Of a stretch of DNA of 32,000 bases, positions 1,865 to 29,946 are shown in pieces. Where the stretch lies: contig NC_010814.1 in the NCBI RefSeq assembly GCF_000020385.1, positions 810,001-842,000 on the forward strand, given 5' to 3'. Position numbers and translations under genes: made by a program. The notes beneath the pieces are model-generated. The model had not been told where the DNA came from, did not search any database, and worked only from the letters and a program-made list of their open reading frames with translations. The DNA is from Trichlorobacter lovleyi SZ (GTDB lineage Bacteria > Desulfobacterota > Desulfuromonadia > Geobacterales > Pseudopelobacteraceae). How positions within the stretch are numbered: the stretch's first letter is position 1; each line of letters begins with the position of its first letter.

Positions 1865-1928
1865 GCCTTTGTATTGTGTACAGAGATGGTATTCACTTTG
1901 TAGCATACCTCAACCAGTACATACAGAG

Positions 1929-3044
1929 GTGTTGACTTTGAACAAAAATATTCCTTTTCTTGATCTGAAGGCTGCTTATCTGGAACTTAAAGAAGAGCTG
2001 GACGCCGCCTATCATTCTGTTGTGGATTCCGGTTGGTATGTTCTTGGCAAAGAGGTTGACGCATTTGAGGCCGAGTTTGCCTCTTTCTGCGGCGTGCGGC
2101 ACTGTGTTGGTGTTGGTAACGGCCTGGATGCGTTGCATCTGATCCTGCGGGCCATGGATATCGGGCCGGGTGATGAAGTGATTGTGCCGGCCAATACCTA
2201 TATTGCCACCTGGTTGGCGGCCTCCTATGCAGGAGCAACTCCGGTGCCGGTGGAACCGGACGAGCAAACCTATAATATCAACAGCACCGGAATTGAGGCG
2301 GCAATTACTACCCGTACTAAAGCAATTCTGGTCGTCCATCTGTATGGCCAGCCCGCTGATATGGATCCAATCATTGATATTGCCCGCCGTTACAATCTTA
2401 AAGTGATTGAAGATGTTGCCCAGGCCCATGGGGCACGCTACAAGGGCCAACGCACCGGTTCTTTGGGCGATGCGGCTGGTTTTAGCTTTTACCCGGGTAA
2501 AAACCTTGGCGCCTTCGGAGACGGAGGGGCCGTAACAACCAACGATGCCGGTCTTGCCGAACGTATTCGGACGTTGCGTAACTACGGCTCAAAGGTTAAA
2601 TACCACAACGAGCAGAAAGGCTTTAATTCTCGTCTTGACGAGCTGCAAGCTGCTTTGCTGCGTGTTAAATTGAAATACCTGGACAGTTGGAACGCGCGTC
2701 GCGAGATACTTGCTGGCAGATACATGCTGGGTCTACAGGCTACAGGATTACAGCTGCCTTCTGTCCCTGAATGGGCGCAGCCGGTTTGGCATCTGTTTGT
2801 TATTGGATGTCGCAACCGTGAGCAGCTGCAGCAGCAGCTCACTGAAGCAGGGATCGGGACGATGATCCATTATCCGGTTCCTCCTCACCTGCAACCAGCC
2901 TATGCCGAACTTGGTCTCAAGGAAGGCAGCTTCCCTATCACTGAGCGTATTCATAGCACCGTACTCAGCCTTCCAATGTGGCCGCAGATGGATGAAAAAC
3001 AAATTCAGACGGTGATAGATGTCCTACTGGATATCACCTTTTAA
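1929..3044 (+). CDS. DegT/DnrJ/EryC1/StrS-family sugar aminotransferase (PLP-dependent, Lys present)
   Basis: [10 protein letters not shown] start region typical of the family, GNGLDALHL, and [21 protein letters not shown] with the Schiff-base Lys retained. The track start TTG 1869 adds an atypical 20-aa AT-rich extension. GTG 1929 (or TTG 1932/1938) is more likely. Confidence 0.9.
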
Positions 3045-3085: not shown

Positions 3086-3199
3086 ATGCGCATCCTGATC
3101 ATCAAGATATCTTCCCCGGGGGATCTCAGCAAGGTCTTGACCGGACAGGGGGCTTGTAACGTGGGCAGGCCGGATGGAATGGCCGGCAAGGGCCGCTGA
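3086..3199 (+). pseudogene. decapitated heptosyltransferase gene start (37-codon relic ORF MRILIIKISSPGD...)
   Basis: The first 13 codons parallel the real GT9 start at 11789 (MKILIIKTSSLGD). The first 25 nt are identical to 10514-10538. A GAGG Shine-Dalgarno sits 6-7 nt upstream. The ORF ends in TGATG overlapping the next gene's ATG at 3199. Confidence 0.6.
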
Positions 3200-3912
3200 T
3201 GGGGGGATTTGAAGCGGTTATACTTGCCGGTGGCGCCGGAACCCGTCTGAGAAGCGTGGTCAGTGATCTGCCGAAACCGATGGCGGGTGTGGCCGGCCGG
3301 CCTTTTCTGGCGTATCAGCTGGACTACCTGGTGGCGTCGGGGGCTTCCCGTCTTATTCTGTCCGTCGGGTATCGCCGCGAAAAGATCATGGAGTTCTTTG
3401 GTGATCGGTATGCCGGCGTACCGGTCAGCTATGTTGTCGAAGAGGAACCCCTGGGAACCGGCGGCGCGATCAGGGAGTCGCTCAGGGCCGTGTGCGGAGA
3501 GAGTGCCCTGGTCCTGAACGGAGATACCTTTTTTCCGGTGGACCTGAACGGCATGCTGCGCACCCTCCATGCCAACGATTGCGGGCTGGTCATGGCAGTC
3601 AAGGAGCTGTTTCGGTTTGACCGCTATGGCACAGTTGTCATGGTTAAGGACCGGATAACCGGGTTCAGGGCAAAGGGCCTTTGCGAGCGGGGCTACATCA
3701 ATGGCGGCATCTATGCGGTGACAAAGGCCATCACGACCCTGTTCCCGGACAGGCAGGCGTTTTCCTTTGAAGCCGACTTTCTGGAACAGCAGGTCGGCCG
3801 GATCGGTGTCGTACCGTTTTGCAGTGACGCCTACTTTATCGATATCGGTATTCCTGAGGACTATCAGAGGGCCCAGCACGAATTACCGTTGCAGGGGGGT
3901 GAGAAGCGATGA
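3199..3912 (+). CDS. sugar-1-phosphate nucleotidyltransferase, HddC-like (D-glycero-alpha-D-manno-heptose-1-P guanylyltransferase family)
   Basis: AVILAGGAGTRLRSVVSDLPKPMAGVAGRPFL is the classic G-rich NTP-transferase loop in its HddC-like form, followed by EEEPLGTGGAI. Its stop overlaps the next start. Confidence 0.85.
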   Translation: MGGFEAVILAGGAGTRLRSVVSDLPKPMAGVAGRPFLAYQLDYLVASGASRLILSVGYRREKIMEFFGDRYAGVPVSYVVEEEPLGTGGAIRESLRAVCGESALVLNGDTFFPVDLNGMLRTLHANDCGLVMAVKELFRFDRYGTVVMVKDRITGFRAKGLCERGYINGGIYAVTKAITTLFPDRQAFSFEADFLEQQVGRIGVVPFCSDAYFIDIGIPEDYQRAQHELPLQGGEKR

Positions 3913-4904
3913 TTGTTACCAGGGCACCACACAGGATCTCGTTTTTTGGCGGTGGAACCGACTATCCTTCTTATTATCTTGAACATGGCGGCAAGGTTAT
4001 CGGCGGTGCCATCGATAAATACTGCTACATCACCTGCCGCGAACTGCCCCCGTTTTTTGAACACAAGCACCGCATCGTCTATTCCCGCATTGAAAACGTC
4101 AGCCACCTGGATGAGATCGTCCATCCCTCGGTTCGTGAGACCATGCGGTACATGGGGGTGACCACCGGTCTGGAGATTCATCATGATGGCGATATCCCGG
4201 CCCGTTCCGGCATGGGCTCAAGCTCCGCCTTTACGGTCTGTCTGCTCAAGACACTCTACGCCCTGCAGGGGCGGATCATCTCCCGCGAAAACCTGTATAA
4301 AGAAGCAATTTATATTGAGCAGGAGCTGATCAAGGAAAATGTCGGTTCCCAGGACCAGACCTTTGCCGCCTGCGGAGGACTCAACGTAATTGACTTCATG
4401 CAGAACGGCCAGATTGTGGCCCAGCCGCTGGTGATGGCGCCGGAGCGCCTGAAACGCTTTAAGGGGAAACTGATGCTGTTTTTTTCGGGCATCTCCCGTT
4501 TTGCTTCGGACATTGCCAAGGAACAGATCGACAACACCCATAAAAATCTGGACAGCCTGTCTGCCATGAAGGGGCTGGTGGACGACGCCTACGGCATCCT
4601 TACCTCGCCACAGGGCGACTTTGATGAGTTTGGCCGCCTCCTGCATGAAACCTGGCAGTACAAACGGGGGCTGTCCAGGCAGATGAGCACTTCTGAGATT
4701 GACTGCATGTACGAGACCGCCATGAAACATGGCGCAATCGGCGGCAAGTTACTGGGAGCCGGCGGCGGCGGCTTCATGCTCCTGTATGTGCCGGAAGAAC
4801 GCCAGGCTGAGGTTCGCCGGGCATTGGGGGGGTATTTGTTTATCCCGTTCGACTTTGATTTTTCCGGGGCACAGATTGTGGTCTACAAGCCGTCCTTTCA
4901 ATAA
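3909..4904 (+). CDS. GHMP-family sugar kinase, HddA-like (heptose-7-P 1-kinase family)
   Basis: RAPHRISFFGGGTDYPSYY N-terminus typical of HddA/COG2605 kinases, GHMP motif PARSGMGSSSAF, and C-terminal GKLLGAGGGGF. Confidence 0.85.
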   Translation: MIVTRAPHRISFFGGGTDYPSYYLEHGGKVIGGAIDKYCYITCRELPPFFEHKHRIVYSRIENVSHLDEIVHPSVRETMRYMGVTTGLEIHHDGDIPARSGMGSSSAFTVCLLKTLYALQGRIISRENLYKEAIYIEQELIKENVGSQDQTFAACGGLNVIDFMQNGQIVAQPLVMAPERLKRFKGKLMLFFSGISRFASDIAKEQIDNTHKNLDSLSAMKGLVDDAYGILTSPQGDFDEFGRLLHETWQYKRGLSRQMSTSEIDCMYETAMKHGAIGGKLLGAGGGGFMLLYVPEERQAEVRRALGGYLFIPFDFDFSGAQIVVYKPSFQ

Positions 4905-4934
4905 TAATCAGGTTTTTGTCACACGGAGTATACC

Positions 4935-5873
4935 ATGAAAAAACATGTCTTCATCACCGGCGGCGCCGGTTATCTCGGCTCAATCCTCTGTGAGCACCTG
5001 CTGGACAAAGGGTATCGGGTTACCGTCCTCGATTCGCTGATGTACGGAGAACAGAACCTTAATCACCTGTGCGCCAATCCTGATTTTGATTTTCATCGCG
5101 GTGATGCTCGTGATGAAAAACTGGTAGGCTCACTGATCAGGGATGCCGATGTCCTGATCCCCCTGGCTGCCATCGTCGGCGCACCGGCCTGCGACCTGGA
5201 CCCGCTCATGGCCAGCTCAACCAACCGTGACGCCATTGCGATGCTCTGTCGTATTCGCCGCCCTGAACAGCTGATCATCTACCCGACGACGAACAGCGGC
5301 TACGGCACCAAGACCGGCGACGTCTTTTGTACTGAAGAGTCGTCCCTTGACCCGATCTCGCTCTACGGACGGACCAAGTGCGAGGCAGAGGAGATCGTCC
5401 TGGCCGCAGGCAACTCGATTACCCTGCGGCTGGCCACCGTCTTCGGCATGTCTCCCCGGCCGCGCCTTGATCTGCTGGTCAACCACTTTACCTATGCCGC
5501 ATTTTTTGACGGCTATCTGGTGATCTTTGAAAAGGACTTCAAACGCAACTACGTCCATATCCGCGACGTTGCTGACTGCTTTATCCACTGCATCGAGAAT
5601 CCGGCACGGATGACCGGGCGTCCGTTCAACGTCGGTCTGGATGCCGCCAACCTTTCCAAAGAGGAACTGGCACTGAAGATCAAGGAGCATATTCCCCGAT
5701 TCTACCTGCATTTCTCTGAAGTAGGCAGCGACCCGGACAAGCGCAACTACATTGTCTCCAACCAGCGCCTGGCCGATGTCGGTTTTGTTGCCAGGCGTTC
5801 CCTGGATGAGGGGATCCGCGAGTTGATCAAAGGCTATCGCCTGATCGGGCGGATGCCGTGCAAAAATATTTAA
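4935..5873 (+). CDS. NAD-dependent extended SDR (sugar-nucleotide epimerase/4-ketoreductase type, probably not a 4,6-dehydratase)
   Basis: ITGGAGYLGS Rossmann motif and YGRTKCEAE (YxxxK). The position where 4,6-dehydratases carry S/T-D-E reads TTNSGYG. GGAG SD upstream. Confidence 0.85.
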   Translation: MKKHVFITGGAGYLGSILCEHLLDKGYRVTVLDSLMYGEQNLNHLCANPDFDFHRGDARDEKLVGSLIRDADVLIPLAAIVGAPACDLDPLMASSTNRDAIAMLCRIRRPEQLIIYPTTNSGYGTKTGDVFCTEESSLDPISLYGRTKCEAEEIVLAAGNSITLRLATVFGMSPRPRLDLLVNHFTYAAFFDGYLVIFEKDFKRNYVHIRDVADCFIHCIENPARMTGRPFNVGLDAANLSKEELALKIKEHIPRFYLHFSEVGSDPDKRNYIVSNQRLADVGFVARRSLDEGIRELIKGYRLIGRMPCKNI

Positions 5874-6011
5874 ATCCGATCCCATTTCAAGGCGCAATCT
5901 TCGTTGGTTCGTTTCCGTCTCCTTGATGTACTGCGTGTACACCTGCGTCGCCGGATTTCTCACCGCCTTGATATCATCCTTGAACTGGAATCGGAATAAG
6001 GAGCCCATCCT

Positions 6012-6833
6012 ATGACACGAGAACTGTCAGAACTGACAGCCAAGGCCCGCTGGGTCTGGAGTGAGACGCTGCGGATGCACCGCCTGGCGCCCGAGACCAG
6101 AGTCGCCTCATCGCTGTCGGCGGTGGAGATCTTTACCGCGCTGTACTATGGCGGGGTGCTGGAACACAACGGTGCCGACCCGCGCTGGGAAGGGCGGGAC
6201 CGTCTGATCGTCAGCAAAGGGCACGGTTCGATCTGCCTCTTTCCTATCCTGGCTGACCGGGGCTATTTTGCCATGGCCGAGCTGGATCGGATCTGTCAGC
6301 CCGGATCGTTTCTGGGGGGGATTCCGGATACCATTATTCCCGGCTACGAGACCATCAACGGTTCATTGGGGCACGGTATCGGTGTAGGCTGCGGCGTGGC
6401 CCTGGGCCTCAAGCGCAAGGGGGCTGCCCGTCACGTCTTCGTGGTGGCCGGTGACGGCGAGTTCTGTGAGGGCTCCATGTGGGAGGGGATTATGTTCGCA
6501 GCCCATCACCAACTGGACAACCTGACCCTGGTCATTGACAATAACAGGCTTTGCATGCTGGACCGCTGCGAAAAGATCATGACGGTTGAACCGTTCGAGC
6601 AACGTTTTCAGGCCTTTGGCTGGCAGACGGAGCGGGTTGACGGCCATGACATGGCTGCCGTACTGGGTGCCCTGTCCCGCTTGAAACTACGCGGCGCGAC
6701 CGGCTGTCCGGCCGTATTGATCGCGGATACGGTCAAGGGAAGAGGGGTGCCGGAGCTGGAGAACGACACGCTCTGTCATATCCGTACCCTGACGCCGGAC
6801 GAGATTGACCGTGCTACCGGAGGTGTGCGATGA
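6012..6833 (+). CDS. transketolase, N-terminal (ThDP/PP-binding) subunit
   Basis: SKGHGS, GSLGHGIGVGCGVAL, and the GDGEFCEGSMWEG...N ThDP-binding motif. AAGGAG SD 8 nt upstream. The stop overlaps the next start. Confidence 0.9.
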   Translation: MTRELSELTAKARWVWSETLRMHRLAPETRVASSLSAVEIFTALYYGGVLEHNGADPRWEGRDRLIVSKGHGSICLFPILADRGYFAMAELDRICQPGSFLGGIPDTIIPGYETINGSLGHGIGVGCGVALGLKRKGAARHVFVVAGDGEFCEGSMWEGIMFAAHHQLDNLTLVIDNNRLCMLDRCEKIMTVEPFEQRFQAFGWQTERVDGHDMAAVLGALSRLKLRGATGCPAVLIADTVKGRGVPELENDTLCHIRTLTPDEIDRATGGVR

Positions 6834-7780
6834 GTGCCGCTCAGATCATGACCATGCGGGATGCCTTTATCGGTACCCTTTGTGATCGTATGGCCGCTGA
6901 CCATTCCATCTTCTTCCTGGCTGCCGACCTGGGGGCGCCGGCCCTGGACCGGATGCGGAGCGAGTTTCCCGAGCGCTTTATCAACGTGGGCATTGCCGAG
7001 CAGAACCTGATCAACGTCGCCTCCGGTCTGGCGCTGGAAGGCTTCAGCGTCTACACCTATGCCATTGCCCCCTTTATTACCATGCGGGCCTATGAGCAGG
7101 CCAGGGTCAATCTGGCGGTCTCATCGCAGATCCGGCCGGTCAAGGTAACCATGCTCGGCCTGGGGGGCGGTGTCAGTTATGTGGTTTCAGGACCAACGCA
7201 TCACTGCCTGGAGGATCTGGCCATTATGCGGCTGCTCCCCAATATGTCGGTCTACTGCCCGGCGGACTGGGTCACGGCAGGGGCACTTGTCGATCATACC
7301 CGCAGTACGAACGGCCCCGCCTATATCCGTTTTGACGGCAAGGCGCTCCCGGCACTGTATGCGGAACCGGCAACCGTCAACCTGCCCCGGGGGTTCAGCC
7401 AGCTGGTGCAGGGAACGGCTACCTGTCTGGTCAGCACCGGCTTTATGACCCATCGGGCGCTGGCGGTGGCGCAGCAACGCCCCGGTGTTGCCGTCATTGA
7501 CCTTTATTCTCTCAAACCGTGCGACGAGCAGGCCCTGGCAACCGCGTTGCGCCCCTACAACCGGGTGATCAGCATGGAGGAGGGCTTCATCAATAACGGC
7601 GGCCTTGACAGCCTGGTTGCCAAGGTGATCCGTGAATATGAACTGCCGTGCCGCCAGGAGTCGGTCGGTTTTAATGATCGCTATGTCTTTGATCTGGGGA
7701 ACCGCGACCATCTGCACGGCATCAACGGCATGGATGAGGCGGCGGTGATCGCGCTGATTGACCGGCGGAGGGATGTATAG
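6830..7780 (+). CDS. transketolase, C-terminal (pyrimidine-binding + C-terminal domain) subunit
   Basis: FINVGIAEQNLINVASGLALEG and SGPTHHCLEDLAIMRLLPNM are typical of split-transketolase/DXS-like beta subunits. Abuts the next ATG directly. Confidence 0.9.
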   Translation: MSAAQIMTMRDAFIGTLCDRMAADHSIFFLAADLGAPALDRMRSEFPERFINVGIAEQNLINVASGLALEGFSVYTYAIAPFITMRAYEQARVNLAVSSQIRPVKVTMLGLGGGVSYVVSGPTHHCLEDLAIMRLLPNMSVYCPADWVTAGALVDHTRSTNGPAYIRFDGKALPALYAEPATVNLPRGFSQLVQGTATCLVSTGFMTHRALAVAQQRPGVAVIDLYSLKPCDEQALATALRPYNRVISMEEGFINNGGLDSLVAKVIREYELPCRQESVGFNDRYVFDLGNRDHLHGINGMDEAAVIALIDRRRDV

Positions 7781-9250
7781 ATGGCCGCTGTTGATATCGT
7801 TCTGATTAACCCGGGTGACCGTAAACAGGTCTATCAGGGATTGGGGGTCGAACTGGCCGCCATCGAACCGCCCTTCTGGGTGGCGGTCATCGCCGCCTAC
7901 CTGCGCCAGGAGGGGTTCCGGGTGGCCATCATTGACGCCAATGCCGAGAACAGTGCGCCGGCCGAGACCGCTCAGCGGGCTGCGGCACTGCAGCCGCTGC
8001 TTTCCTGTGTGGTCGTGTATGGTTCGCACCCTTCCGCTTCAACCCAGAACATGACCATTGCCGGCGCCATCTGTCGTGCCCTGACCGCGGAATCGGCAGG
8101 CCGGGTGGCCCTGTCCGGGCTGCATCCCTCGGCACTTCCCGAACGGACCATGCGCGAAGAGGCGATTGATTTTGTGGTGGAAGGTGAAGGGCCGGATACC
8201 CTCCGGACACTGCTTGGCGAACTGGCCGCACCGGCCCCTGATCTGTCACGGGTGCCCGGCCTCTGGTACCGCGAAGGGGAGCTGCTCCGTTCCACCCCGC
8301 GGGCGCCGTTGATCAGCGATCTGGACCGTTACCTGCCGATCGCTGCCTGGGACCTGCTGCCGATGCATGTCTACCGTGCCCATAACTGGCACTGCTTTGA
8401 CGATATCGGGCACCGTTCTCCCTATGGGGCCGTCTATACCAGCCTCGGTTGTCCTTACAACTGCATTTTCTGTTGTATCAACGCCCCCTTCGGCAAGCCG
8501 GGGATCCGCTACCGTTCACCGGAACGGGTGGTGGAGGAGATCGCCCTGCTGGCCAATGACTACGGGGTCAAGAACCTGAAGATCGTTGACGAACTGTTTG
8601 TGCTCAAAGAGCAGCATTACATGGCCATTGTGGACGGGATCATTGAACGCGGGCTGGATCTGAATATCTGGGCCTATGCCCGGGTGGACACGATCAAGAC
8701 CGCCAACCTGGCCCGGATGAAACAGGCCGGGATCAACTGGCTGGCCCTGGGGATCGAGTCGGCCAGCCCGGATGTGCGCGACGGCGCCGACAAACGGATG
8801 CAGGCGCGCGATATCAAGGAGGTGGTCCGTTCCATCCGGGAACAGGGCATCAGGATCATCGGAAACTTCATTTTCGGCCTGCCGGATGATACCCGTGAGA
8901 CCATGGAGGAGACCCTGCAGCTGGCCATGGAGCTCAACTGCGAATTTATCAATTTCTACTGTGCCATGGCCTATCCCGGCTCCAGGCTGTATGATCTGGC
9001 CGTGGAACAGGGCTGGGAACTGCCGGTCGCCTGGCATGGCTTCTCCCAGCACGGCTACGACATGCTGCCGCTGCCTACCCGTACCCTGGCTGCCCGCGAG
9101 GTGCTGCAGTTCCGCGACGACGCCTTTCATCGTTATTTTGCCAACCCGGTCTACCTGGATATGGTGGAGCAGGCCTTTGGGGCCGGGGTCAGGGAACACC
9201 TGGTGGAGATGAGTGCCACCCGTTTAAAAAGAAAACTTCTGGGAAACTGA
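7781..9250 (+). CDS. B12-binding-domain radical SAM enzyme (class B rSAM; methyltransferase or rearrangement type)
   Basis: N-terminal Rossmann-like cobalamin-binding region (VAIIDANAEN...VVVYGSHPS). CxxxCxxC cluster in YTSLGCPYNCIFCC. Later radical-SAM core blocks (GIESASPDV, NFIFGLPDDT). Confidence 0.85.
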   Translation: MAAVDIVLINPGDRKQVYQGLGVELAAIEPPFWVAVIAAYLRQEGFRVAIIDANAENSAPAETAQRAAALQPLLSCVVVYGSHPSASTQNMTIAGAICRALTAESAGRVALSGLHPSALPERTMREEAIDFVVEGEGPDTLRTLLGELAAPAPDLSRVPGLWYREGELLRSTPRAPLISDLDRYLPIAAWDLLPMHVYRAHNWHCFDDIGHRSPYGAVYTSLGCPYNCIFCCINAPFGKPGIRYRSPERVVEEIALLANDYGVKNLKIVDELFVLKEQHYMAIVDGIIERGLDLNIWAYARVDTIKTANLARMKQAGINWLALGIESASPDVRDGADKRMQARDIKEVVRSIREQGIRIIGNFIFGLPDDTRETMEETLQLAMELNCEFINFYCAMAYPGSRLYDLAVEQGWELPVAWHGFSQHGYDMLPLPTRTLAAREVLQFRDDAFHRYFANPVYLDMVEQAFGAGVREHLVEMSATRLKRKLLGN

Positions 9251-9254
9251 AATC

Positions 9255-10526
9255 ATGCACAAACGTCAAATCCCCTTTGGGACCATCACCATTACAGAAT
9301 CAGCCAAGCGCCTGATCGTGGAATCGCTGGAGACCAAGCGGATATCCTGCGGCAAGCTGGTCCGTGAATTTGAAAACCGCTTTGCAGGACTGCTGGGTGT
9401 CAAGGAGGCGGTTGCCGTCAGCACCGGCACCGATGCCGACACCCTTGCCCTGGCCGTGCTGCATGACTTCGGCGCCCGGCGTGGCGACGAGGTGATTGTT
9501 CCGGCCCTCTCGTTTGTCGCCACCGGCAATGCCGTGCTGCATGCCGGCTTTACACCGGTCTTTGTCGATATCGAGCGGGAGACCCTGAATATTGATCCGG
9601 CCGGGATCGAGGCCGCCATTACCCCCCGTACCCGAGCCATCATGCCGGTGCATCTGATGGGCAAGCCGGCCGAGATGGATACCATCAACGCCATTGCCAA
9701 AAAACATGGCCTGCTGGTGGTGGAGGATGCCGCTGAGGCCCATGGGGCGCTCTACAAGGGGAAGCCGGCCGGCAGCCTGGCTGACCTGGCAGCCTTCAGT
9801 ACCTATGTGGCCCACATCATCACCACCGGTGAGGGGGGGGTCATTACCACCAACAACGAACAGTACGGCGAGATCCTCCGTTCGCTACGCTCCCACGGCC
9901 GGAACTGCACCTGCAAACACTGCATCATGAATACCGATACGGTGACCTATTGCGCCAAGCGTTTCCGGGGTGAAGGTGGCGAGGATGTCCGCTTCACCTT
10001 TGACCGGATCGGCTATTCCTGCAAGATGAACGAGCTGGAGGCGGCCATCGGCATCGGCGCCATGGAGGTGTACCACGAGATCCTGAAAAAGCGGCATGAC
10101 AACCTGCTCTACGTCCTGGAACGTTTCGACCGTTTTGCCCCCTGGCTCTCCACCATCAAGGAAGAGGCCCATGAACAGATCGGTCCCCATGCCATTCCGA
10201 TCATCATCAACGAAGGGGCACCCTTCAGCCGTGCCGATCTGACCCACTACCTTGAGCAGAACGGCATTGAGACCCGCACCCTCTTCGCCTCAATGCCGAC
10301 CCAGTGCCCCGGTTTTGCCTATCTGGGGTATCGGTTGGGGCAGTTTCCGAACGCTGAATATATGGGGCTCAACGGTATTCATATCGGTGTGCATCAGGAC
10401 GTGGGGATCGAGGATATGGAGTATGTCTTGACAATACTGGGACAGTTTCTTCAAAACTCGGGGCCTGACGGCTCCAGCAGGCCACAGCGGTCCTGGATGA
10501 GGACCGTTCAGGCATGCGCATCCTGA
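9255..10526 (+). CDS. RfbH/DdhC (E1)-like PMP-dependent sugar 3-dehydrase (DegT fold, catalytic Lys replaced by His, Cys cluster)
   Basis: DegT-fold blocks are present, but FSTYVAH(187)IITTGEGG has His where aminotransferases have Lys, as in E1 and ColD. RSHGRNCTCKHCIMNTDTVTYCAKRF (C218,C220,C223,C233) resembles the RfbH Fe-S region as I recall it ([21 protein letters not shown]). The last ~20 aa and the TGA stop lie in junction/repeat DNA. Confidence 0.8.
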   Translation: MHKRQIPFGTITITESAKRLIVESLETKRISCGKLVREFENRFAGLLGVKEAVAVSTGTDADTLALAVLHDFGARRGDEVIVPALSFVATGNAVLHAGFTPVFVDIERETLNIDPAGIEAAITPRTRAIMPVHLMGKPAEMDTINAIAKKHGLLVVEDAAEAHGALYKGKPAGSLADLAAFSTYVAHIITTGEGGVITTNNEQYGEILRSLRSHGRNCTCKHCIMNTDTVTYCAKRFRGEGGEDVRFTFDRIGYSCKMNELEAAIGIGAMEVYHEILKKRHDNLLYVLERFDRFAPWLSTIKEEAHEQIGPHAIPIIINEGAPFSRADLTHYLEQNGIETRTLFASMPTQCPGFAYLGYRLGQFPNAEYMGLNGIHIGVHQDVGIEDMEYVLTILGQFLQNSGPDGSSRPQRSWMRTVQACAS

Positions 10527-10607: not shown

Positions 10608-11792
10608 ATGTTTGCCAGAACCATCACACCAACCCTGTTATCCCTTGCAACGGAATTTCCGGTTGTTACGATCACCGGCCCTCGTCAGAGTGGTAAGACA
10701 ACCCTGTGCCGTACAACCTTTCCCGATAAACCCTATATCAATCTTGAACAACCCGAAACACGGCAATTTGCCAAGGAAGATCCCAAGGGCTTCTTGGCGA
10801 CAATCCCTGATGGCGCTGTCCTGGATGAGATTCAGCGTGTGCCTGATCTCCTCTCGTATATCCAGGTGCTGGTTGATGATAAACCGGCGGCAGGCCGGTT
10901 TATTCTGACGGGCAGCCAGCAGTTTGAAGTGATGAATACCATCAGTCAGTCCCTGGCGGGCAGGACGGCGCTTTTAAAGCTGTTGCCACTCAGTATCGAA
11001 GAACTGACAACTGCGGGTGTTACTGCTTCTTCCAGTCAGCTCATTCTGAACGGGTTCTATCCCCGTATCCATAGCCAGCGGCTTAATCCGACGCGTGTGC
11101 TGAGTGACTATTTTGAGACCTATGTCGAGCGGGATCTCCGTCAGTTGGTCACGCTTAAAAATCTCGGCCTGTTTGAAAAGTTTGTTCGTTTGTGCGCCGG
11201 AAGAGTCGGGCAGCTTCTTAACCTGCAAGGGCTGGGGGCGGAAGTTGGCGTTTCCCATTCAACGGCACGCGAATGGTTGACGTTGCTTGAGGCCAGTTAT
11301 GTTGTGTTTCAGCTGCGACCCTGGCACAGCAACATTTCAAAGCGATTGATCAAGTCTCCGAAACTCTATTTCTACGATGTTGGGCTTGCAAGCTATCTGC
11401 TGGGGCTGGAAACTGAGTCGCAGGTGGGGCGTGACCCTTTACGCGGCAATCTCTTTGAAAATATGGCGATCATTGAGGCCCTAAAATATTGTTACAACCG
11501 GGGCAAAAAGGGGGCAGCCTCTTTTTACCGGGATAGCAACGGCAATGAAGTGGACCTGGTGATGGAGGTCGGGCCAGACCTGTTTCCCGTTGAGATTAAA
11601 TCAGCCGAAACCATAGTGCCGGAATTTTTCAAAGGGCTTGTATCGTTCTCGAAGATAGCCCCTAAAGTACTGCTTGGCGCTGGCCTCGTGTATGGCGGGA
11701 CAGAGCAGCAGAAACGTACAGCCGGAGAGGTCTGGCCGGTTACCAGGATGCATGAGATGCTGGATGGCGTCTATTGCCGTGAGACTGTATGA
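10608..11792 (+). CDS. AAA+ ATPase of the AAA_14/DUF4143 family
   Basis: FPVVTITGPRQSGKTTL Walker A in the characteristic N-terminal context, ILDEIQ-type Walker B (VLDEIQRVP), and a C-terminal DUF4143-like region (NGNEVDLV...VEIK). The stop overlaps the GT9 start (ATGA). Confidence 0.85.
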   Translation: MFARTITPTLLSLATEFPVVTITGPRQSGKTTLCRTTFPDKPYINLEQPETRQFAKEDPKGFLATIPDGAVLDEIQRVPDLLSYIQVLVDDKPAAGRFILTGSQQFEVMNTISQSLAGRTALLKLLPLSIEELTTAGVTASSSQLILNGFYPRIHSQRLNPTRVLSDYFETYVERDLRQLVTLKNLGLFEKFVRLCAGRVGQLLNLQGLGAEVGVSHSTAREWLTLLEASYVVFQLRPWHSNISKRLIKSPKLYFYDVGLASYLLGLETESQVGRDPLRGNLFENMAIIEALKYCYNRGKKGAASFYRDSNGNEVDLVMEVGPDLFPVEIKSAETIVPEFFKGLVSFSKIAPKVLLGAGLVYGGTEQQKRTAGEVWPVTRMHEMLDGVYCRETV

Positions 11793-12850
11793 AAATCCTG
11801 ATCATCAAGACATCTTCCCTGGGTGATATCATCCACGCCTTGCCGGTGCTGGAGTACCTCCGGCAGGCGGAGCCCGCTGCCACCATTGACTGGGTGGTGG
11901 ACGAGGCGTTTGTTGATCTGGTGTCCGGTAACCCGTTGATCAACCGTGTGCTGACGGTTGCCTTCCGGCGCTGGAAAAAGGCTCCCTTTGCCCGACGTAC
12001 CCGGCGGGAGCTGGTGTCGTTTATTCAGACGCTGCGGCAGGAACGCTACGACCTGATCTTTGATCTGCAGGGCAACCTCAAGAGCGGCCTGGTCTGCGCT
12101 TTTGGACGTGCCCCGCTGAAGGTCGGTTTCAGCAGGGCGCATCAGCAGGAACGTCTCAATGCCCTCTTTACAAACCGCAAGGTCGGCTTTCTTCCGCCGG
12201 ACAAAAATGCCGGCCAGCGTTACCTGCGAATTGTCAGTGCCCCCTTCGCCCTGCCCCCCGAGTCGGTTGTCCCCCATGGCGATATCTATACCTCCCCTGA
12301 GGACAATGCCCACGCACAGCAGATGATTGGTGGGGCGGCGGGGCACCCCCTGATGCTGTTTCATAACGGCACCACCTGGACAACCAAGCTCTGGCATGCA
12401 GAGGGCTGGAAGCAGCTGGCAGACGCCCTGCTGCTGCATTATCCGCAGGCCACAATCCTGCTGTCATGGGGTACTGCGGAAGAGCGCATGCTTGCAGAGG
12501 AGATTGCCCGCCATATCGGTGACCGTGCCGTTGTGCTCGGGAAGATGTCGCTCAAACAGTTTGTGGCGGTGTTGAAACGGGTTGATCTGGTGGTGGGGGG
12601 CGATACCGGGCCGATCCATCTGGCCGCTGCCGTGGGGACGCCAACCGTCTCCTTCTACCGTTGTACGGATGGCTCATTGAACGGGCCGCTGGGAAGAGAT
12701 CATATGATTGTGCAATCGCCATTGCCCTGTACCAAATGTCTGCGCAAGAGCTGCGAACGGGATGAGGAGTGCAGAAAGAGCATCAGCGTCAAGGCCATGC
12801 TGACCGCAGCGGAGTCCTGCCTTGACCATGGGAAAGCGGCAGCCCTGTGA
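11789..12850 (+). CDS. waaC: GT9 ADP-heptose:LPS heptosyltransferase, WaaC-like
   Basis: MKILIIKTSSLGDIIHALPVL, DWVVDE, AFRRWKKA, DLQGNLKS and VGGDTGPIHLAAAVG parallel E. coli WaaC blocks as I recall them. Confidence 0.8.
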   Translation: MKILIIKTSSLGDIIHALPVLEYLRQAEPAATIDWVVDEAFVDLVSGNPLINRVLTVAFRRWKKAPFARRTRRELVSFIQTLRQERYDLIFDLQGNLKSGLVCAFGRAPLKVGFSRAHQQERLNALFTNRKVGFLPPDKNAGQRYLRIVSAPFALPPESVVPHGDIYTSPEDNAHAQQMIGGAAGHPLMLFHNGTTWTTKLWHAEGWKQLADALLLHYPQATILLSWGTAEERMLAEEIARHIGDRAVVLGKMSLKQFVAVLKRVDLVVGGDTGPIHLAAAVGTPTVSFYRCTDGSLNGPLGRDHMIVQSPLPCTKCLRKSCERDEECRKSISVKAMLTAAESCLDHGKAAAL

Positions 12851-13854
12851 AGATCGCACTGGTCAGACTTTCATCCCTGGGAGACATCGTCCTCTGCATG
12901 GCCTCATTGCAGGTGATCAGGCAGGCCTTTCCCGACTGCCGGATCACCTGGGTCACGGATCAGAGGTTTGCCGGTCTGCTTGACTGCCAGCCGGATGTTG
13001 AGCAGGTCATCGCCCTTGATCTGAAGGGGATCAAGAAACGTCCCAGCTGGTCCGGTCTGGTCGCGCAGTTTCAGGCCTTGCGTTCCGCCGGTCCGTTTGA
13101 CCGGGTAATCGATCTGCACGGCATGATCAAGTCCGCGGTTGTCGGGTCGCTGCTGGGGGGCAGGCAAGACGGTTTTGCCAGATCATGCCGGAAGGAGTCA
13201 CTGGCCGGTCTTTGGTACCGCGAGGCCTATAGCATCCCCTATGACCTGCCGGCCACCGTGCGCTATACCCTGCTTGTCTGCAGGGCACTGGGCATCGCTT
13301 GCAGCCCTGCAGAGGCGGCGGCCTATCCGCAACGCCCGTACATGCATTGGCAGAAGTGTGATGAAGCGGTGCTGGAACCCTATCTGAGCGACCAGGCAAA
13401 AAATGTGCTGATTGTACCGGGAACCAGCGCGCCGAACAAGAATTACCCGCCGGAGCAGTTTGCAGCCGTGGCCAACCTGTTGAAGCTGAACCTGCTCGTC
13501 TGCCATGGCAATGACGCCGAGTATGCGGCTGCGCTGACCATTGCCGGGCATGCCCCCCACGTCAGGGTGCTGCCGCGGCTTCGCCTGGGGGAACTCAAGG
13601 CATTGGCCGGTCGCATGGATCTGGTGATTGGCGGCGATTCCGGGCCGACGCACCTCGCATTGGCCAGCGGCGTGCCGTCGATCACGCTGTTTGGTGCAAC
13701 GCCGGTCTGCTTTACGCCGGGTCTGCGGAACAGGGTGATCAAGACCGCTACGGTGCCGAATCTGCTGAAGCCGGACCCCCATGACCTTTCAGTGGCAGAG
13801 ATACCGGCCGGTCAGATTGCCGATCTGGCTGCTGAACTGCTTGCAGGGAGCTGA
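12847..13854 (+). CDS. second GT9-family LPS heptosyltransferase
   Basis: MKIALVRLSSLGDIVL, DLHGMIKSA and IGGDSGPTHLALASGVP. GTG start in a GTGA overlap with the previous stop. Heptosyltransferase I versus II cannot be decided by eye. Confidence 0.8.
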   Translation: MKIALVRLSSLGDIVLCMASLQVIRQAFPDCRITWVTDQRFAGLLDCQPDVEQVIALDLKGIKKRPSWSGLVAQFQALRSAGPFDRVIDLHGMIKSAVVGSLLGGRQDGFARSCRKESLAGLWYREAYSIPYDLPATVRYTLLVCRALGIACSPAEAAAYPQRPYMHWQKCDEAVLEPYLSDQAKNVLIVPGTSAPNKNYPPEQFAAVANLLKLNLLVCHGNDAEYAAALTIAGHAPHVRVLPRLRLGELKALAGRMDLVIGGDSGPTHLALASGVPSITLFGATPVCFTPGLRNRVIKTATVPNLLKPDPHDLSVAEIPAGQIADLAAELLAGS

Positions 13855-16173: not shown

Positions 16174-17241
16174 CTATGGGGCAGAAACCTCTGCGCCGAT
16201 CACGCGGATCGCTTCGTAGATTACCGTGTCATACTTGTCCTGGCTGATAGCCAGGGCAACGGCAGGGATCCGCAGGAGTGACTTGACAAAACCGAAACGC
16301 ACATCGCGGGGCAGCAGGGCAATATAGTTGATCAGGTGCTGCTCCTGGTCAGGCTCAAGCTGCGGCGTTAACTGCAACGTGGTAAGCAGGTCGTTGATGG
16401 TGGCTGCCTGGACATCATCACGCTGTGCGGCTGCCCGCTGGGCGGCGTTGTCCCAGTCATCAAGCACCTCCCGTGCCGTCAGGGGGCGCCCCTCCCGGTC
16501 TGCAAGCCAGCGCATGAAGGTGATTGCAGCCTCTTTGCCGATGATGCCGGCATAGACCTCCATGGCCAGGTCACCTGGAAAGCGGCAGTGCTGGCGCAGG
16601 GTGCTGACCATCTCCCAGCCACGCTCGGTCGGCTCGACCTGCATATCCATGGCAGCACCCTGTTTGGCCAGCAGGGCGCTGTTGCCGGCCAGAAAACCGC
16701 GTACCTCGCTGTCCAGTTCACGGCTGGCGGCATAACGTGCCCAGCATTGGAAATCGCTCTCAACATAGAGCATCACCATCCGGTCAATCAGGGCGCGGTC
16801 AAGGGTGGCAACCTGGTAGGTGCCGTCCGGCGGGTTGATGGTGACTACCACCTTGTGACGGGTGGCGAGGCGGTGGGTATGCAGGGCGCGCTGCAACCCC
16901 TCGGTGGGGGGCTCTACAAACTGGAAAATCGCCTGCAGGGTGTCCTCCTGCTGTGCCCGGTTCAGCTCATCACAGTGCACCAGTGTCGGGGGGGCTTCAT
17001 CCGCAGGCCACCAAGAGGGGCGGGACCAGTGCATGACATTGTCTTCGCGAAACGGGATGCCAACCAGATCACCTACCTCCATTTGTCCCAGGCGCAGGGG
17101 GGCATAGCGCCAGCCGATCTCCCGGCAGACCTGCACAATACCGGCTGTCTTGCCGACCCCCCGGTGTCCCACCACGCAGGGAGTCAGGTCGGTTTTGGTC
17201 AGGATCTCTTTCAAAACGAGTTTCATCTGTTCAATATTCAT
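16174..17241 (-). CDS. MoxR/AAA_5-like AAA+ ATPase with an uncharacterised C-terminal half
   Basis: Walker A GHRGVGKT, Walker B LVHCDELNRA, and LDRALIDR (sensor/Arg region). The track start 17301 was trimmed to ATG 17241, which has AAGGAGG 9 nt upstream. Confidence 0.8.
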   Translation of the reverse strand: MNIEQMKLVLKEILTKTDLTPCVVGHRGVGKTAGIVQVCREIGWRYAPLRLGQMEVGDLVGIPFREDNVMHWSRPSWWPADEAPPTLVHCDELNRAQQEDTLQAIFQFVEPPTEGLQRALHTHRLATRHKVVVTINPPDGTYQVATLDRALIDRMVMLYVESDFQCWARYAASRELDSEVRGFLAGNSALLAKQGAAMDMQVEPTERGWEMVSTLRQHCRFPGDLAMEVYAGIIGKEAAITFMRWLADREGRPLTAREVLDDWDNAAQRAAAQRDDVQAATINDLLTTLQLTPQLEPDQEQHLINYIALLPRDVRFGFVKSLLRIPAVALAISQDKYDTVIYEAIRVIGAEVSAP

Positions 17242-17413
17242 GCTGCAGCAGCCTCCTTGCATCGAGTCTAAAATGATAGATGAAAGAGTGGATTGGTTCA
17301 AGCGCTATTGGACTAATTTGCTCTTTTTACATTGCTTTCTTGTTGTTAATGTATTCTGTGCTACATAGATGCAAACAGAAACGATACGGGCAGAAAAGAT
17401 AAGGATACCTGTC

Positions 17414-28956: not shown

Positions 28957-29946
28957 ATGAGACGACCTGTTGTTATCAGCAATCTGCTGGCTATACTTGC
29001 TGTCTGTGCAGTTTTGTACTTCCATCTGGTGCCGGCAGTTTTTGCCGGTCTGGCGGTGTATGTACTTACCCTGAAGCTTGCCCGACACCTGCCGCGCAAC
29101 ATGAATCGTTTTGCCCACAGGGTTGCCCTGGGGGTCGTTGTTGTCTGTGTTATCTCCTGTCTGACTAGTGTTGGTGCTCTGATTTGGTCATACGTCAGCA
29201 GCAGTCAGGCTATTGCGGCATTATTGACAACAGTGGTTGATACCCTTGAAAGCCTCCGTAAAACGCTTCCTGCACAAATAGCGGAAGCCTTGCCGGCAAC
29301 TATTGAAGATTTACATCAACACCTGGTTTCGCTGCTGGGGGTTCATGCCCAGAAAATTTCCATAGTCGGGCTGGAGGGGATCAAATATCTGGCACATATT
29401 ATCCTGGGGATGGTGGTTGGCGGTATGGCTGCCGTGCATCACTTCAATGAACATGAAAAGGTTCCACCCTTTATCAGTGCCATGCGTACAAGGCTGGGAA
29501 ACCTTGCCATCGCCTTTGACAAGGTGGTTTTTGCCCAGGTAAAGATCTCTGGCCTCAATGCAGCCCTAACTGCAGTCTACCTGCTTGTTGCCCTGCCGTT
29601 ATTCGGCATTCATCTGCCCATGGCATCAATACTGGTTTTACTGACGTTTGCAGTCGGAATGCTACCGGTGGTGGGTAACCTGGTTTCAAACTCAGTGATA
29701 GTCGTAATCAGTCTTGGTATTTCATTGGGGGTGGGTGTTGCTTCACTGCTGTTTCTGGTACTGATACACAAGGCTGAGTATTTTATGAATGCCAGAATCG
29801 TCGGGCATGAGGTGCAGGCAACCGCATGGGAGCTGTTGAGCGCCATGCTGCTTCTGGAGGCGGTCTTTGGTATTGCCGGACTGGTGGCGGCGCCGGTGGT
29901 ATATGCCTGGTTAAAGGCAGAGGTAAAAGCGCAAGGAATGATCTAG
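28957..29946 (+). CDS. AI-2E (PerM/UPF0118) family transporter
   Basis: Polytopic membrane protein. The C-terminal half (LPVVGNLVSNSVIVVISL...IHKAEYFMNARIVGHEVQATAWELL...GIAGLVAAPVV) follows the AI-2E family pattern. Confidence 0.75.
   Translation: MRRPVVISNLLAILAVCAVLYFHLVPAVFAGLAVYVLTLKLARHLPRNMNRFAHRVALGVVVVCVISCLTSVGALIWSYVSSSQAIAALLTTVVDTLESLRKTLPAQIAEALPATIEDLHQHLVSLLGVHAQKISIVGLEGIKYLAHIILGMVVGGMAAVHHFNEHEKVPPFISAMRTRLGNLAIAFDKVVFAQVKISGLNAALTAVYLLVALPLFGIHLPMASILVLLTFAVGMLPVVGNLVSNSVIVVISLGISLGVGVASLLFLVLIHKAEYFMNARIVGHEVQATAWELLSAMLLLEAVFGIAGLVAAPVVYAWLKAEVKAQGMI

Follow-up and report, generated by a model that had tools for sequence, protein, structure and literature searches.

A widely conserved gene cassette of Trichlorobacter lovleyi proposed to build and tailor a GDP-activated heptose

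We describe here a cassette of seven genes in Trichlorobacter lovleyi SZ, located at positions 3199–10526 of a stretch of 32,000 nucleotides (NC_010814.1, positions 810,001 to 842,000; referred to simply as the window). It combines enzymes of sugar-nucleotide synthesis with a transketolase-like enzyme dependent on thiamine diphosphate (ThDP) and a B12-binding radical S-adenosylmethionine (SAM) enzyme. We lean, by a small margin over even chances, to a model in which GDP-heptose is deoxygenated at C3, given a two-carbon branch and radically tailored by the enzymes of the cassette, to yield a surface sugar; this is a single judgement on all parts of the model taken jointly. The first half of the cassette appears not to be an orphan, since its HddA/HddC pair, short-chain dehydrogenase/reductase (SDR) and 3-dehydrase resemble, in sequence, those of a characterized route of Campylobacter jejuni. 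An earlier note on this DNA knew of no described pathway uniting the parts of the cassette, and our full-text literature searches likewise found no paper uniting these genes.

The cassette and its recurrence in other genomes

The list of open reading frames (ORFs) gives seven genes on the + strand, packed between exactly the coordinates that the earlier note had reported:

3199..3912, +, HddC-like sugar-1-phosphate (probably heptose-1-phosphate) guanylyltransferase, 237 aa (Pfam NTP_transferase)
3909..4904, +, HddA-like GHMP anomeric sugar kinase, 331 aa (Pfam GHMP_kinases_N/C)
4935..5873, +, putative Cj1427-type NAD-dependent GDP-heptose C4-dehydrogenase, an extended SDR, 312 aa (Pfam Epimerase; 6VO6 similarity)
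6012..6833, +, transketolase-like ThDP enzyme, PP-domain subunit, 273 aa (Pfam Transketolase_N)
6830..7780, +, transketolase-like ThDP enzyme, Pyr/C-domain subunit, 316 aa (Pfam Transket_pyr and Transketolase_C)
7781..9250, +, B12-binding (class B) radical SAM enzyme of an uncharacterized, highly conserved family, 489 aa (Pfam B12-binding and Radical_SAM)
9255..10526, +, putative sugar 3-dehydrase dependent on pyridoxamine 5′-phosphate (PMP), with His187 for the lysine of pyridoxal 5′-phosphate (PLP) enzymes and a four-Cys loop, 423 aa (Pfam DegT_DnrJ_EryC1)

Two of the junctions are 4-bp overlaps, one pair of genes abuts, and the remaining gaps are of 4, 30 and 138 nt. The families that had been assigned to the seven proteins were recovered as well, each being matched by Pfam, with HddC, HddA and RfbH among the best NCBIfam models. 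It seems slightly favoured that the seven genes are one operon for building and tailoring a GDP-activated heptose, a grading that again covers the five-step model given below as a whole. No Rfam match was obtained anywhere in the window; the 138-nt gap ahead of the transketolase (TK) genes accordingly shows no riboswitch for thiamine pyrophosphate or cobalamin. Promoter and terminator scans of the window gave signals at chance level only.

A profile search with the radical SAM protein, in which each species was represented by one genome, showed that at least 580 species have a relative of it. The census of loci was limited to the 80 with the highest similarity to the query protein (52–82% identity). 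These come from Desulfuromonadales, Nitrospirota, Planctomycetota (Brocadia, Scalindua), Lentisphaerota, Verrucomicrobiota, Campylobacterota, Myxococcota, Omnitrophota, Cyanobacteria, Patescibacteria and others, and from Alpha-, Beta- and Gammaproteobacteria (Magnetospirillum, Azospirillum halopraeferens, Herbaspirillum lusitanum, Legionellales). The 42 loci covering at least 19 kb (well-covered loci) were then examined by tblastn for six core functions, namely the kinase, the nucleotidyltransferase, the Cj1427-like SDR, the 3-dehydrase, the two-subunit ThDP enzyme and the radical SAM enzyme. The ThDP enzyme was found in 36 of the 42, the kinase in 34 (47–67% identical), the SDR in 33, the dehydrase in 31 and the nucleotidyltransferase in 28. 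All six functions occurred together in 18 loci and five of them in a further 13. Nearly all core matches (233/242) lay on the strand of the radical SAM gene, and the median span was 9.1 kb.

The earlier note had named a chance juxtaposition as the reading that a lack of co-conservation would support. Recurrence of at least five of the six functions in 31/42 loci, around a homologue of the radical SAM gene, on one strand over about 9 kb and in many phyla, refutes such a reading, and the overlapping stops and starts in the window speak against it too. We give it practically no credence.

The cassette is modular. The ThDP enzyme is of the TK type in 17 loci and of the alpha/beta type of pyruvate dehydrogenase E1 (PDH-E1) in 20, in the same operon position, and each ThDP type is found with each dehydrase type (see below). 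Contigs of metagenome-assembled genomes (MAGs) resembling T. lovleyi share the gene order of the window. Other genes counted in the 42 loci were a second, Fcl-like SDR resembling GDP-L-fucose synthase (24 loci; 461 bits, cut-off 500), GT2 glycosyltransferases (15), an FAD enzyme resembling L-2-hydroxyglutarate oxidase (10) and a GMD-like dehydratase (8). It may be noted that five loci (L015–L017, L020 and L022 in our numbering) carry, between the E1 beta and radical SAM genes, genes for a DJ-1/PfpI protein, a 571-aa Fcl-like fusion, an altronate/galactarate-dehydratase-like protein and an HAD_2 hydrolase; these insertions hint at a further elaborated product.

Assignment of the individual enzymes

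Comparison of the SDR with the PDB entries 6VO6/6VO8 showed 51% identity over residues 1–304 (341 bits, E 6e-101). The PDB title is uninformative. The 6VO6 sequence falls within a C. jejuni cluster of 313-aa proteins, whose gene lies between that of an Fcl-like SDR and the HddA, GmhA and HddC genes, with a Capsule_synth-family gene adjoining. This position indicates that 6VO6 is the C. jejuni protein at the place of Cj1427 in the capsule heptose locus. Cj1427 is a GDP-heptose C4-dehydrogenase, whose tightly bound NADH is re-oxidized with 2-oxoglutarate, yielding L-2-hydroxyglutarate (PMC10680097). Homology thus lends strong support to the assignment of the SDR of the window as a Cj1427-type GDP-heptose C4-dehydrogenase. 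Its motif TTNSGYG, which the earlier note had read in place of a dehydratase signature, was located at residue 118, and YGRTK at residue 144. Four FAD oxidases linked to the cassette in related loci scored 312–614 bits, above the NCBIfam cut-off of 299 for L-2-hydroxyglutarate oxidase. They support the Cj1427 assignment independently, since such an enzyme would recycle the by-product of Cj1427. With an SDR of this type the 4-keto group would be made directly and the C6 hydroxyl retained. A 4,6-dehydratase had been listed by the earlier note among the expected partners; it is indeed absent from the window, but with an SDR 51% identical to Cj1427 it would not be needed.

The kinase and the nucleotidyltransferase are closest to structurally solved enzymes of heptose pathways. 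The best PDB match of the nucleotidyltransferase was a Yersinia '6-deoxy-D-mannoheptose pathway protein' (5XHW/6JQ8, E 7e-43), so that its nearest solved structures are those of HddC. Its best NCBIfam model was likewise HddC (NF049965; 224 bits, cut-off 300), ahead of the next family (136 bits) by 88 bits. In the PDB the kinase came nearest to a sugar kinase (4USM/4USK) and to two heptose kinases (3K85, 4N3O), with E values of 1e-30 to 1e-39; in NCBIfam its best model was HddA (NF049969; 137 bits, cut-off 600). Inside the related cassettes, GmhA-like genes were found in 9/42 loci and GmhB-like genes in 5/42; GmhA and GmhB belong to the cassette in other genomes. The GmhA-like protein, of the SIS family, scored 195 bits (cut-off 209), and together with the Fcl-like SDR (461 against 500) it points to a GDP-linked manno-heptose as the substrate. 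The earlier note had missed GmhA, GmhB and a 4,6-dehydratase in the cassette, and the whole window lacks them as well: a tblastn search of its 32 kb (E<=1e-3) gave no homologue of GmhA, GmhB, 4,6-dehydratase, Fcl-like reductase, NUDIX protein or L-2-hydroxyglutarate oxidase.

The protein encoded last in the cassette aligned over its full length with E1 (3BCX, E 1e-56) and also with ColD. The earlier note had called it E1/RfbH-type. This label holds for the replacement of the PLP lysine by His187 (VAHIITTGEGG, compared with PAHHITMGEGG in 3BCX). It does not hold for the cysteine C193 of E1, whose equivalent is an alanine (EDAAEAHG, compared with EDCCDALG), nor for the loop GRNCTCKHCIMNTDTVTYC, which overlaps the iron-sulphur (Fe-S) loop of E1 and is different. 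Four cysteines, C218, C220, C223 and C233, are found here; the CxC pair is retained, and C223 and C233 are extra cysteines in the same loop. The [2Fe-2S] motif of E1/RfbH is C-X57-C-X1-C-X7-C, and the dehydrase does not follow it. All four loop cysteines were kept in nine of nine orthologues (63–90% identity) from other loci. The score with the RfbH model of NCBIfam (NF011936) was 266 bits, below the cut-off of 423, whereas a genuine RfbH encoded upstream of the window scored 748. Judged by these features, the protein would be a 3-dehydrase of a distinct subtype and not an RfbH, and it probably carries an Fe-S cluster.

Every DegT protein linked to the cassette in related loci carries His for Lys. 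Most of these dehydrases are ColD-like (FSFYYAHHMST or FSTFFSHHIST; best PDB match ColD, E 4e-52), and the ColD type, the commonest in related loci, works without E3. The four-Cys type was found in the window, in its close relatives and in some Nitrospirota and Brocadia. In agreement with the earlier note, which had missed an E3-type reductase in the cassette, the ORFs of at least 150 aa in the window gave no Pfam match to ferredoxin reductase or 2Fe-2S domains, no dedicated search for E3 being made. In L010 and L001, the closest relatives from outside T. lovleyi, a gene for an amine-oxidase-like flavoprotein follows that of the four-Cys dehydrase, directly in L010 (6693–8045) and with one 303-aa ORF between them in L001 (12800–15063). 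The window lacks this flavoprotein, a candidate partner of the dehydrase in electron transfer. It may also be noted that the predicted length of the dehydrase is 413 aa in some T. lovleyi-like contigs (L084, 3290–4531; L085, 18462–19703) and 423 aa in the window and others; strains may differ at one end of the gene.

Both ThDP subunits resembled a split transketolase. The PP-domain subunit had the N-terminal chain of 6YAK as its best PDB match (E 8e-48) and the Pyr/C-domain subunit had 6YAJ (E 1e-37); with the NCBIfam transketolase model NF004559 they scored 208 and 141 bits, respectively (cut-off 488). The Pyr/C-domain subunit keeps the cofactor Glu (GIAEQN, conserved among the cassette proteins) and the His of GPTHH. 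In most cassette TKs, the sequence RLGRSG of the housekeeping split transketolase 6YAJ is replaced by RFDGK or a close variant, and DLSKST by DFG-SP. The Arg lost with RLGRSG is presumably the phosphate-clamp Arg of canonical transketolases. The single-chain architecture of YerE (TPP_enzyme_N/M/C) differs from that of the cassette enzyme, which is two-subunit and TK-type; it may nevertheless work like YerE from outside the YerE family. A minimal ThDP pair was seen in a Herbaspirillum sp. (L088, 13612–14763), where an E1_dh-like protein of 199 aa and a Transket_pyr protein of 178 aa occur without Transketolase_C. This pair is a third form of the ThDP module.

The radical SAM enzyme matched B12-binding (PF02310, 68 bits) and Radical_SAM (PF04055, 69 bits) in Pfam. 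Its CxxxCxxC motif, formed by C224, C228 and C231, was invariant in 15 diverse homologues. The scores with NCBIfam models were 164 bits for HpnJ (cut-off 578), 150 for BchE and 88 for AprD4 (cut-off 500), so that the score of no named class B subfamily was reached. AprD4 was the best PDB match in sequence (E 1e-19). When an AlphaFold2 model (pTM 0.80) was searched with Foldseek, it lay about equally near to AprD4, TsrM, MgmA, CysS, TokK and OxsB, with the best TM-score (0.68–0.74) for AprD4. The model places the enzyme in class B but does not tell methylase, dehydratase and rearrangement functions apart. The enzyme shares the B12-binding domain, the CxxxCxxC core and the predicted fold with known members of that class that act on sugars or make carbocycles (GenK/Fom3/TsrM-type methylases, AprD4, OxsB, HpnJ, BchE), but forms a conserved family of its own, with 52–82% identity across phyla, and is tied to a GDP-heptose/ThDP context that is absent from those enzymes. 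The family has thousands of members; the protein of the window is 98% identical to one from Trichlorobacter (Geobacter) lovleyi. Distant B12-radical SAM paralogues, 24–30% identical to the cassette enzyme, were also seen near the cassette in L007, L009, L013, L017, L025, L029 and L080.

A proposed pathway and its alternatives

In the model that we put forward, the first step would be the formation of GDP-heptose, with GmhA and GmhB borrowed from the heptose pathway of the cell's lipopolysaccharide (LPS); homology and the GmhA/GmhB genes inside the cassettes of other genomes point to this step. The Cj1427-type SDR would then oxidize C4 to give GDP-4-keto-heptose, its bound NADH being re-oxidized with 2-oxoglutarate. 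As the third step, the PMP-dependent dehydrase would remove the 3-hydroxyl and yield GDP-3-deoxy-4-keto-heptose, as suggested by homology and by the His-for-Lys signature at the catalytic residue. This same compound has been made in vitro by Cj1427 and a C3-dehydratase, both enzymes of C. jejuni (PMC10680097). By analogy, the first three steps would follow characterized chemistry.

The likeness to the capsular GDP-heptose pathway of C. jejuni extends to the types of kinase and nucleotidyltransferase, to the SDR and to the His-for-Lys 3-dehydrase, and in related cassettes also to the Fcl-like SDR, GmhA and GmhB. In contrast, the C. jejuni pathway is without ThDP and radical SAM enzymes, and its 4-keto sugar is merely epimerized and reduced (PMC10680097). 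The window, for its part, has neither a C4-reductase nor an epimerase, and its dehydrase has a four-Cys loop that ColD-type enzymes do not have.

In the fourth step, the TK-like ThDP pair would add a two-carbon unit of the glycolaldehyde type to the C4 ketone; we expect a glycolyl-type branch from the TK module and an acetyl-type branch from the E1 module. Three observations argue for two-carbon addition to a nucleoside diphosphate (NDP)-keto-sugar and against a role in pentose-phosphate metabolism. The same operon slot is filled now by a TK-type and now by an E1-type enzyme; the cassette TKs are without the Arg of the housekeeping RLGRSG; and no C4-reductase that could remove the ketone is encoded in the window.

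The order of reactions has a parallel in the pathways of yersiniose, erwiniose and caryophyllose (RfbF, RfbG, E1/RfbH with E3, YerE/ErwE, YerF; PMC9306805), where a 4-keto sugar undergoes 3-deoxygenation by a PMP-dehydrase followed by ThDP carboligation at C4. YerE adds a pyruvate-derived acetyl group to a 3,6-dideoxy-4-keto sugar (PMC9306805), so that the 3-deoxy-4-keto NDP-sugar expected here is precisely its type of acceptor. The substrate there is a CDP-6-deoxyhexose, whereas that of the cassette would be a (probably GDP-linked) heptose in which C6 and C7 are retained. Moreover, YerE is a single-chain flavoprotein of the acetolactate-synthase type, non-homologous to the cassette ThDP enzyme, and no radical SAM step is involved. 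The nearest functional analogue of the E1 alpha/beta module, which is found in about half of the related cassettes, is provided by the AviB1/AviB2 and Pau11/Pau12 systems, which are PDH-E1-like. These two-protein ThDP systems are proposed to add pyruvate-derived acetyl branches to NDP-4-keto sugars of antibiotics (PMC4753412). They differ in belonging to Gram-positive secondary metabolism, in acting on dTDP-deoxyhexoses and in having no radical SAM partner, and the window has the transketolase-type variant.

The fifth and last step would be a radical reaction of the B12-dependent enzyme on the branched sugar. On priors we favour C-methylation of an unactivated carbon, the main alternative being a redox-neutral C–C cyclization. 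The product would then be used in a surface glycan, probably LPS; its identity and this destination are both inferred.

Several points weigh against this model. All seven proteins scored below the curated equivalog cut-offs of NCBIfam, so that the substrate identities rest on best-match homology, with the kinase as the weakest case (137 against 600 bits). The reaction type of the radical SAM enzyme cannot be read from its sequence or fold, as methylases are found among its neighbours together with a diol dehydratase and a ring-contracting enzyme. The relatives in C. jejuni of the Fcl-like SDR found in 24/42 loci are C4-reductases, and if C4 is reduced in those loci, the ThDP enzyme must act elsewhere there. 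We know of no transketolase-type enzyme that branches an NDP-sugar. Finally, the window is without a dedicated glycosyltransferase, a flippase or a reductase partner for an Fe-S dehydrase.

The alternative that we take most seriously, though we still consider it unlikely, makes the radical SAM enzyme a carbocycle-forming cyclase. It would abstract a hydrogen from C7 and join C7 to the branch carbonyl C8, giving a 4,8-cyclo-3-deoxy-nonose of the caryose type. The TK-type module would lead to its 9-hydroxy form, and the PDH-E1 type to the 9-deoxy form, caryose itself. Counting the atoms ourselves, we find caryose to be an isomer of 4-C-acetyl-3-deoxy-heptose (C9H16O7). The 3-deoxy position, the C4–C8 bond, the pyruvate-derived terminal methyl and the heptose backbone of caryose each map to one cassette enzyme, leaving the C7–C8 bond to the radical SAM enzyme; a cyclization would also make unnecessary a ketoreductase for the branch carbonyl, which the minimal cassette of the window lacks. 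The best NCBIfam models of the enzyme, HpnJ and BchE, are linked to carbocycle formation (PMC9092360 for HpnJ). In addition, the T. lovleyi locus has a YerE and aldolase module as proposed for sugars of the caryophyllose type (PMC9306805), and caryophyllose occurs alongside caryose in Burkholderia caryophylli. Yet Burkholderia/Trinickia caryophylli was not among the named matches in the best 120 (at least 76% identity) to the Herbaspirillum radical SAM protein, and caryose is known from one species while the family has thousands of members. Most characterized B12-radical SAM enzymes are methyltransferases and the fold search shows no preference; radical addition to a ketone is, besides, chemically demanding. 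The broader claim, that the cassette is a route to caryose-type carbocyclic higher sugars and that bicyclic nonoses are widespread and overlooked on the surfaces of environmental bacteria, seems to us unlikely to the same degree. Bradyrhizose was considered as a product and rejected, since a sugar of ten carbons (C10) whose carbocycle is six-membered misfits a scheme of heptose plus two carbons. Its genes were given as 'unknown' in 2016, and the cluster implicated in it has a dTDP-glucose 4,6-dehydratase.

Less probable again is action of the TK-like pair before nucleotide activation, where it would either supply sedoheptulose 7-phosphate or extend the chain of a sugar phosphate, giving an octulose or nonulose phosphate. 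The lengthened product would be isomerized, 1-phosphorylated and nucleotidylated, and the SDR, the dehydrase and the radical SAM enzyme would tailor an unbranched higher sugar. Transketolases do normally act on sugar phosphates, and the low HddA score of the kinase (137 against 600 bits) leaves room for a substrate other than a heptose. A precedent is the GDP-octose route of the lincosamides, with the transaldolase LmbR, LmbN, the GHMP kinase LmbP, LmbK and the nucleotidyltransferase LmbO, in which a C–C-bond-forming enzyme and HddA- and HddC-like enzymes likewise lead to a GDP-activated higher sugar. There, however, the chain is extended by a transaldolase at the sugar-phosphate stage, whereas the interchangeability of the TK and PDH-E1 modules in the cassette argues for action on an NDP-keto-sugar. 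With pyruvate, the E1-type pair that replaces the TK pair, in the same position, in about half of the loci would yield 1-deoxy-ketoses, which are unable to become aldose-1-phosphates. The loss of the RLGRSG Arg is a further point against action on sugar phosphates, as are the GmhA-like protein of related loci, which is just under the equivalog cut-off for a sedoheptulose-7-phosphate isomerase, and the SDR, which is 51% identical to a heptose-specific enzyme. The least probable of the three would be an AprD4-like radical diol dehydratase acting on the C6–C7 diol or on a dihydroxyethyl branch to give a further deoxygenated sugar. AprD4 was the best PDB match both in sequence and in TM-score, and AprD3 is the SDR partner of AprD4, so that the Fcl-like SDR beside the radical SAM gene in 24/42 loci would have a counterpart. 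But the NCBIfam model of AprD4 gave only 88 bits (cut-off 500), and the cassette of the window has no reductase partner. The B12-binding domain is strongly matched, whereas AprD4, to our knowledge, does not use cobalamin.

Neighbouring genes and implications

The following genes flank the cassette within the window:

123–797, adh_short SDR, in a low-GC stretch
794–1864, +, AroB-related 'sugar phosphate phospholyase (cyclizing)' (TIGR04425, 440 bits, cut-off 400)
1869..3044, +, DegT-family aminotransferase with Lys retained (Pfam DegT, 413 bits); accessory role possible, membership of the cassette uncertain
10608–11792, +, AAA_14/DUF4143 ATPase (Pfam), between the cassette and the glycosyltransferase family 9 (GT9) genes
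11789..13854, +, two tandem GT9 heptosyltransferase-I-like genes (Pfam Glyco_transf_9; TIGR02193, 238 and 232 bits, cut-off 185)

The GC content is 33–44% in the first 1.9 kb of the window and 53–61% in the cassette, with a jump at about position 1950. The AroB-like cyclase, the SDR and the aminotransferase were considered as members of the cassette and rejected, being compositionally distinct and not co-conserved. The aminotransferase gene has a host-like GC content, unlike the low-GC genes before it, and is not conserved beside the cassette in other genera; its TTG start at 1869 is probably too early, as MAG calls are of 368–376 aa. These three genes look like an aminocyclitol-type or side-chain-forming unit.

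In T. lovleyi-like contigs, the low-GC stretch continues upstream of the window (L085–L087, 1–10000). The module found there encodes an FkbM methyltransferase, glucose-1-phosphate cytidylyltransferase (RfbF; 434 bits, cut-off 300), CDP-glucose 4,6-dehydratase (520, cut-off 278), the genuine RfbH mentioned above (748, cut-off 423), an SDR, a ThDP enzyme of the acetolactate-synthase type and an HMGL-like aldolase. By its gene content it is a classical module of the YerE/ErwE type for an acyl-branched 3,6-dideoxyhexose, a pathway described by Steitz et al. (PMC9306805). It was probably acquired horizontally.

The earlier note had placed the cassette directly upstream of heptosyltransferase genes. 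This is not so, as the AAA_14/DUF4143 ATPase gene intervenes; it was present in all examined T. lovleyi-like contigs reaching past the cassette. The two GT9 genes look like a duplicated gene for a WaaC-like enzyme. They neighbour the cassette in all such contigs extending that far, and not consistently so in other genera. Their context suggests an LPS core region. That two different branched-sugar modules adjoin each other close to LPS core heptosyltransferases supports, without proving, LPS as the destination of the product. Two further ORFs of the window, 16174–17301 (−; 375 aa) and 28957–29946 (+; 329 aa), had no Pfam match.

If the model of GDP-heptose branching and radical tailoring is true, the pathway would be widely distributed, as at least 580 species have relatives of the radical SAM enzyme, including cultivable Herbaspirillum, Magnetospirillum and Azospirillum halopraeferens as well as anammox bacteria. 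PMP-dependent deoxygenation, ThDP carboligation and cobalamin-dependent radical SAM catalysis would then be seen together for the first time on one nucleotide sugar. A large and conserved orphan family of B12-radical SAM enzymes gains a functional context, with a defined and already synthesizable substrate, and a possibly new role is suggested for transketolase-type enzymes, that of branching NDP-sugars. The cassette also offers a biosynthetic hypothesis for carbocyclic and branched higher sugars such as caryose, and it predicts new C9/C10 sugars in the LPS and glycans of Geobacter relatives, Nitrospirota and Planctomycetes.

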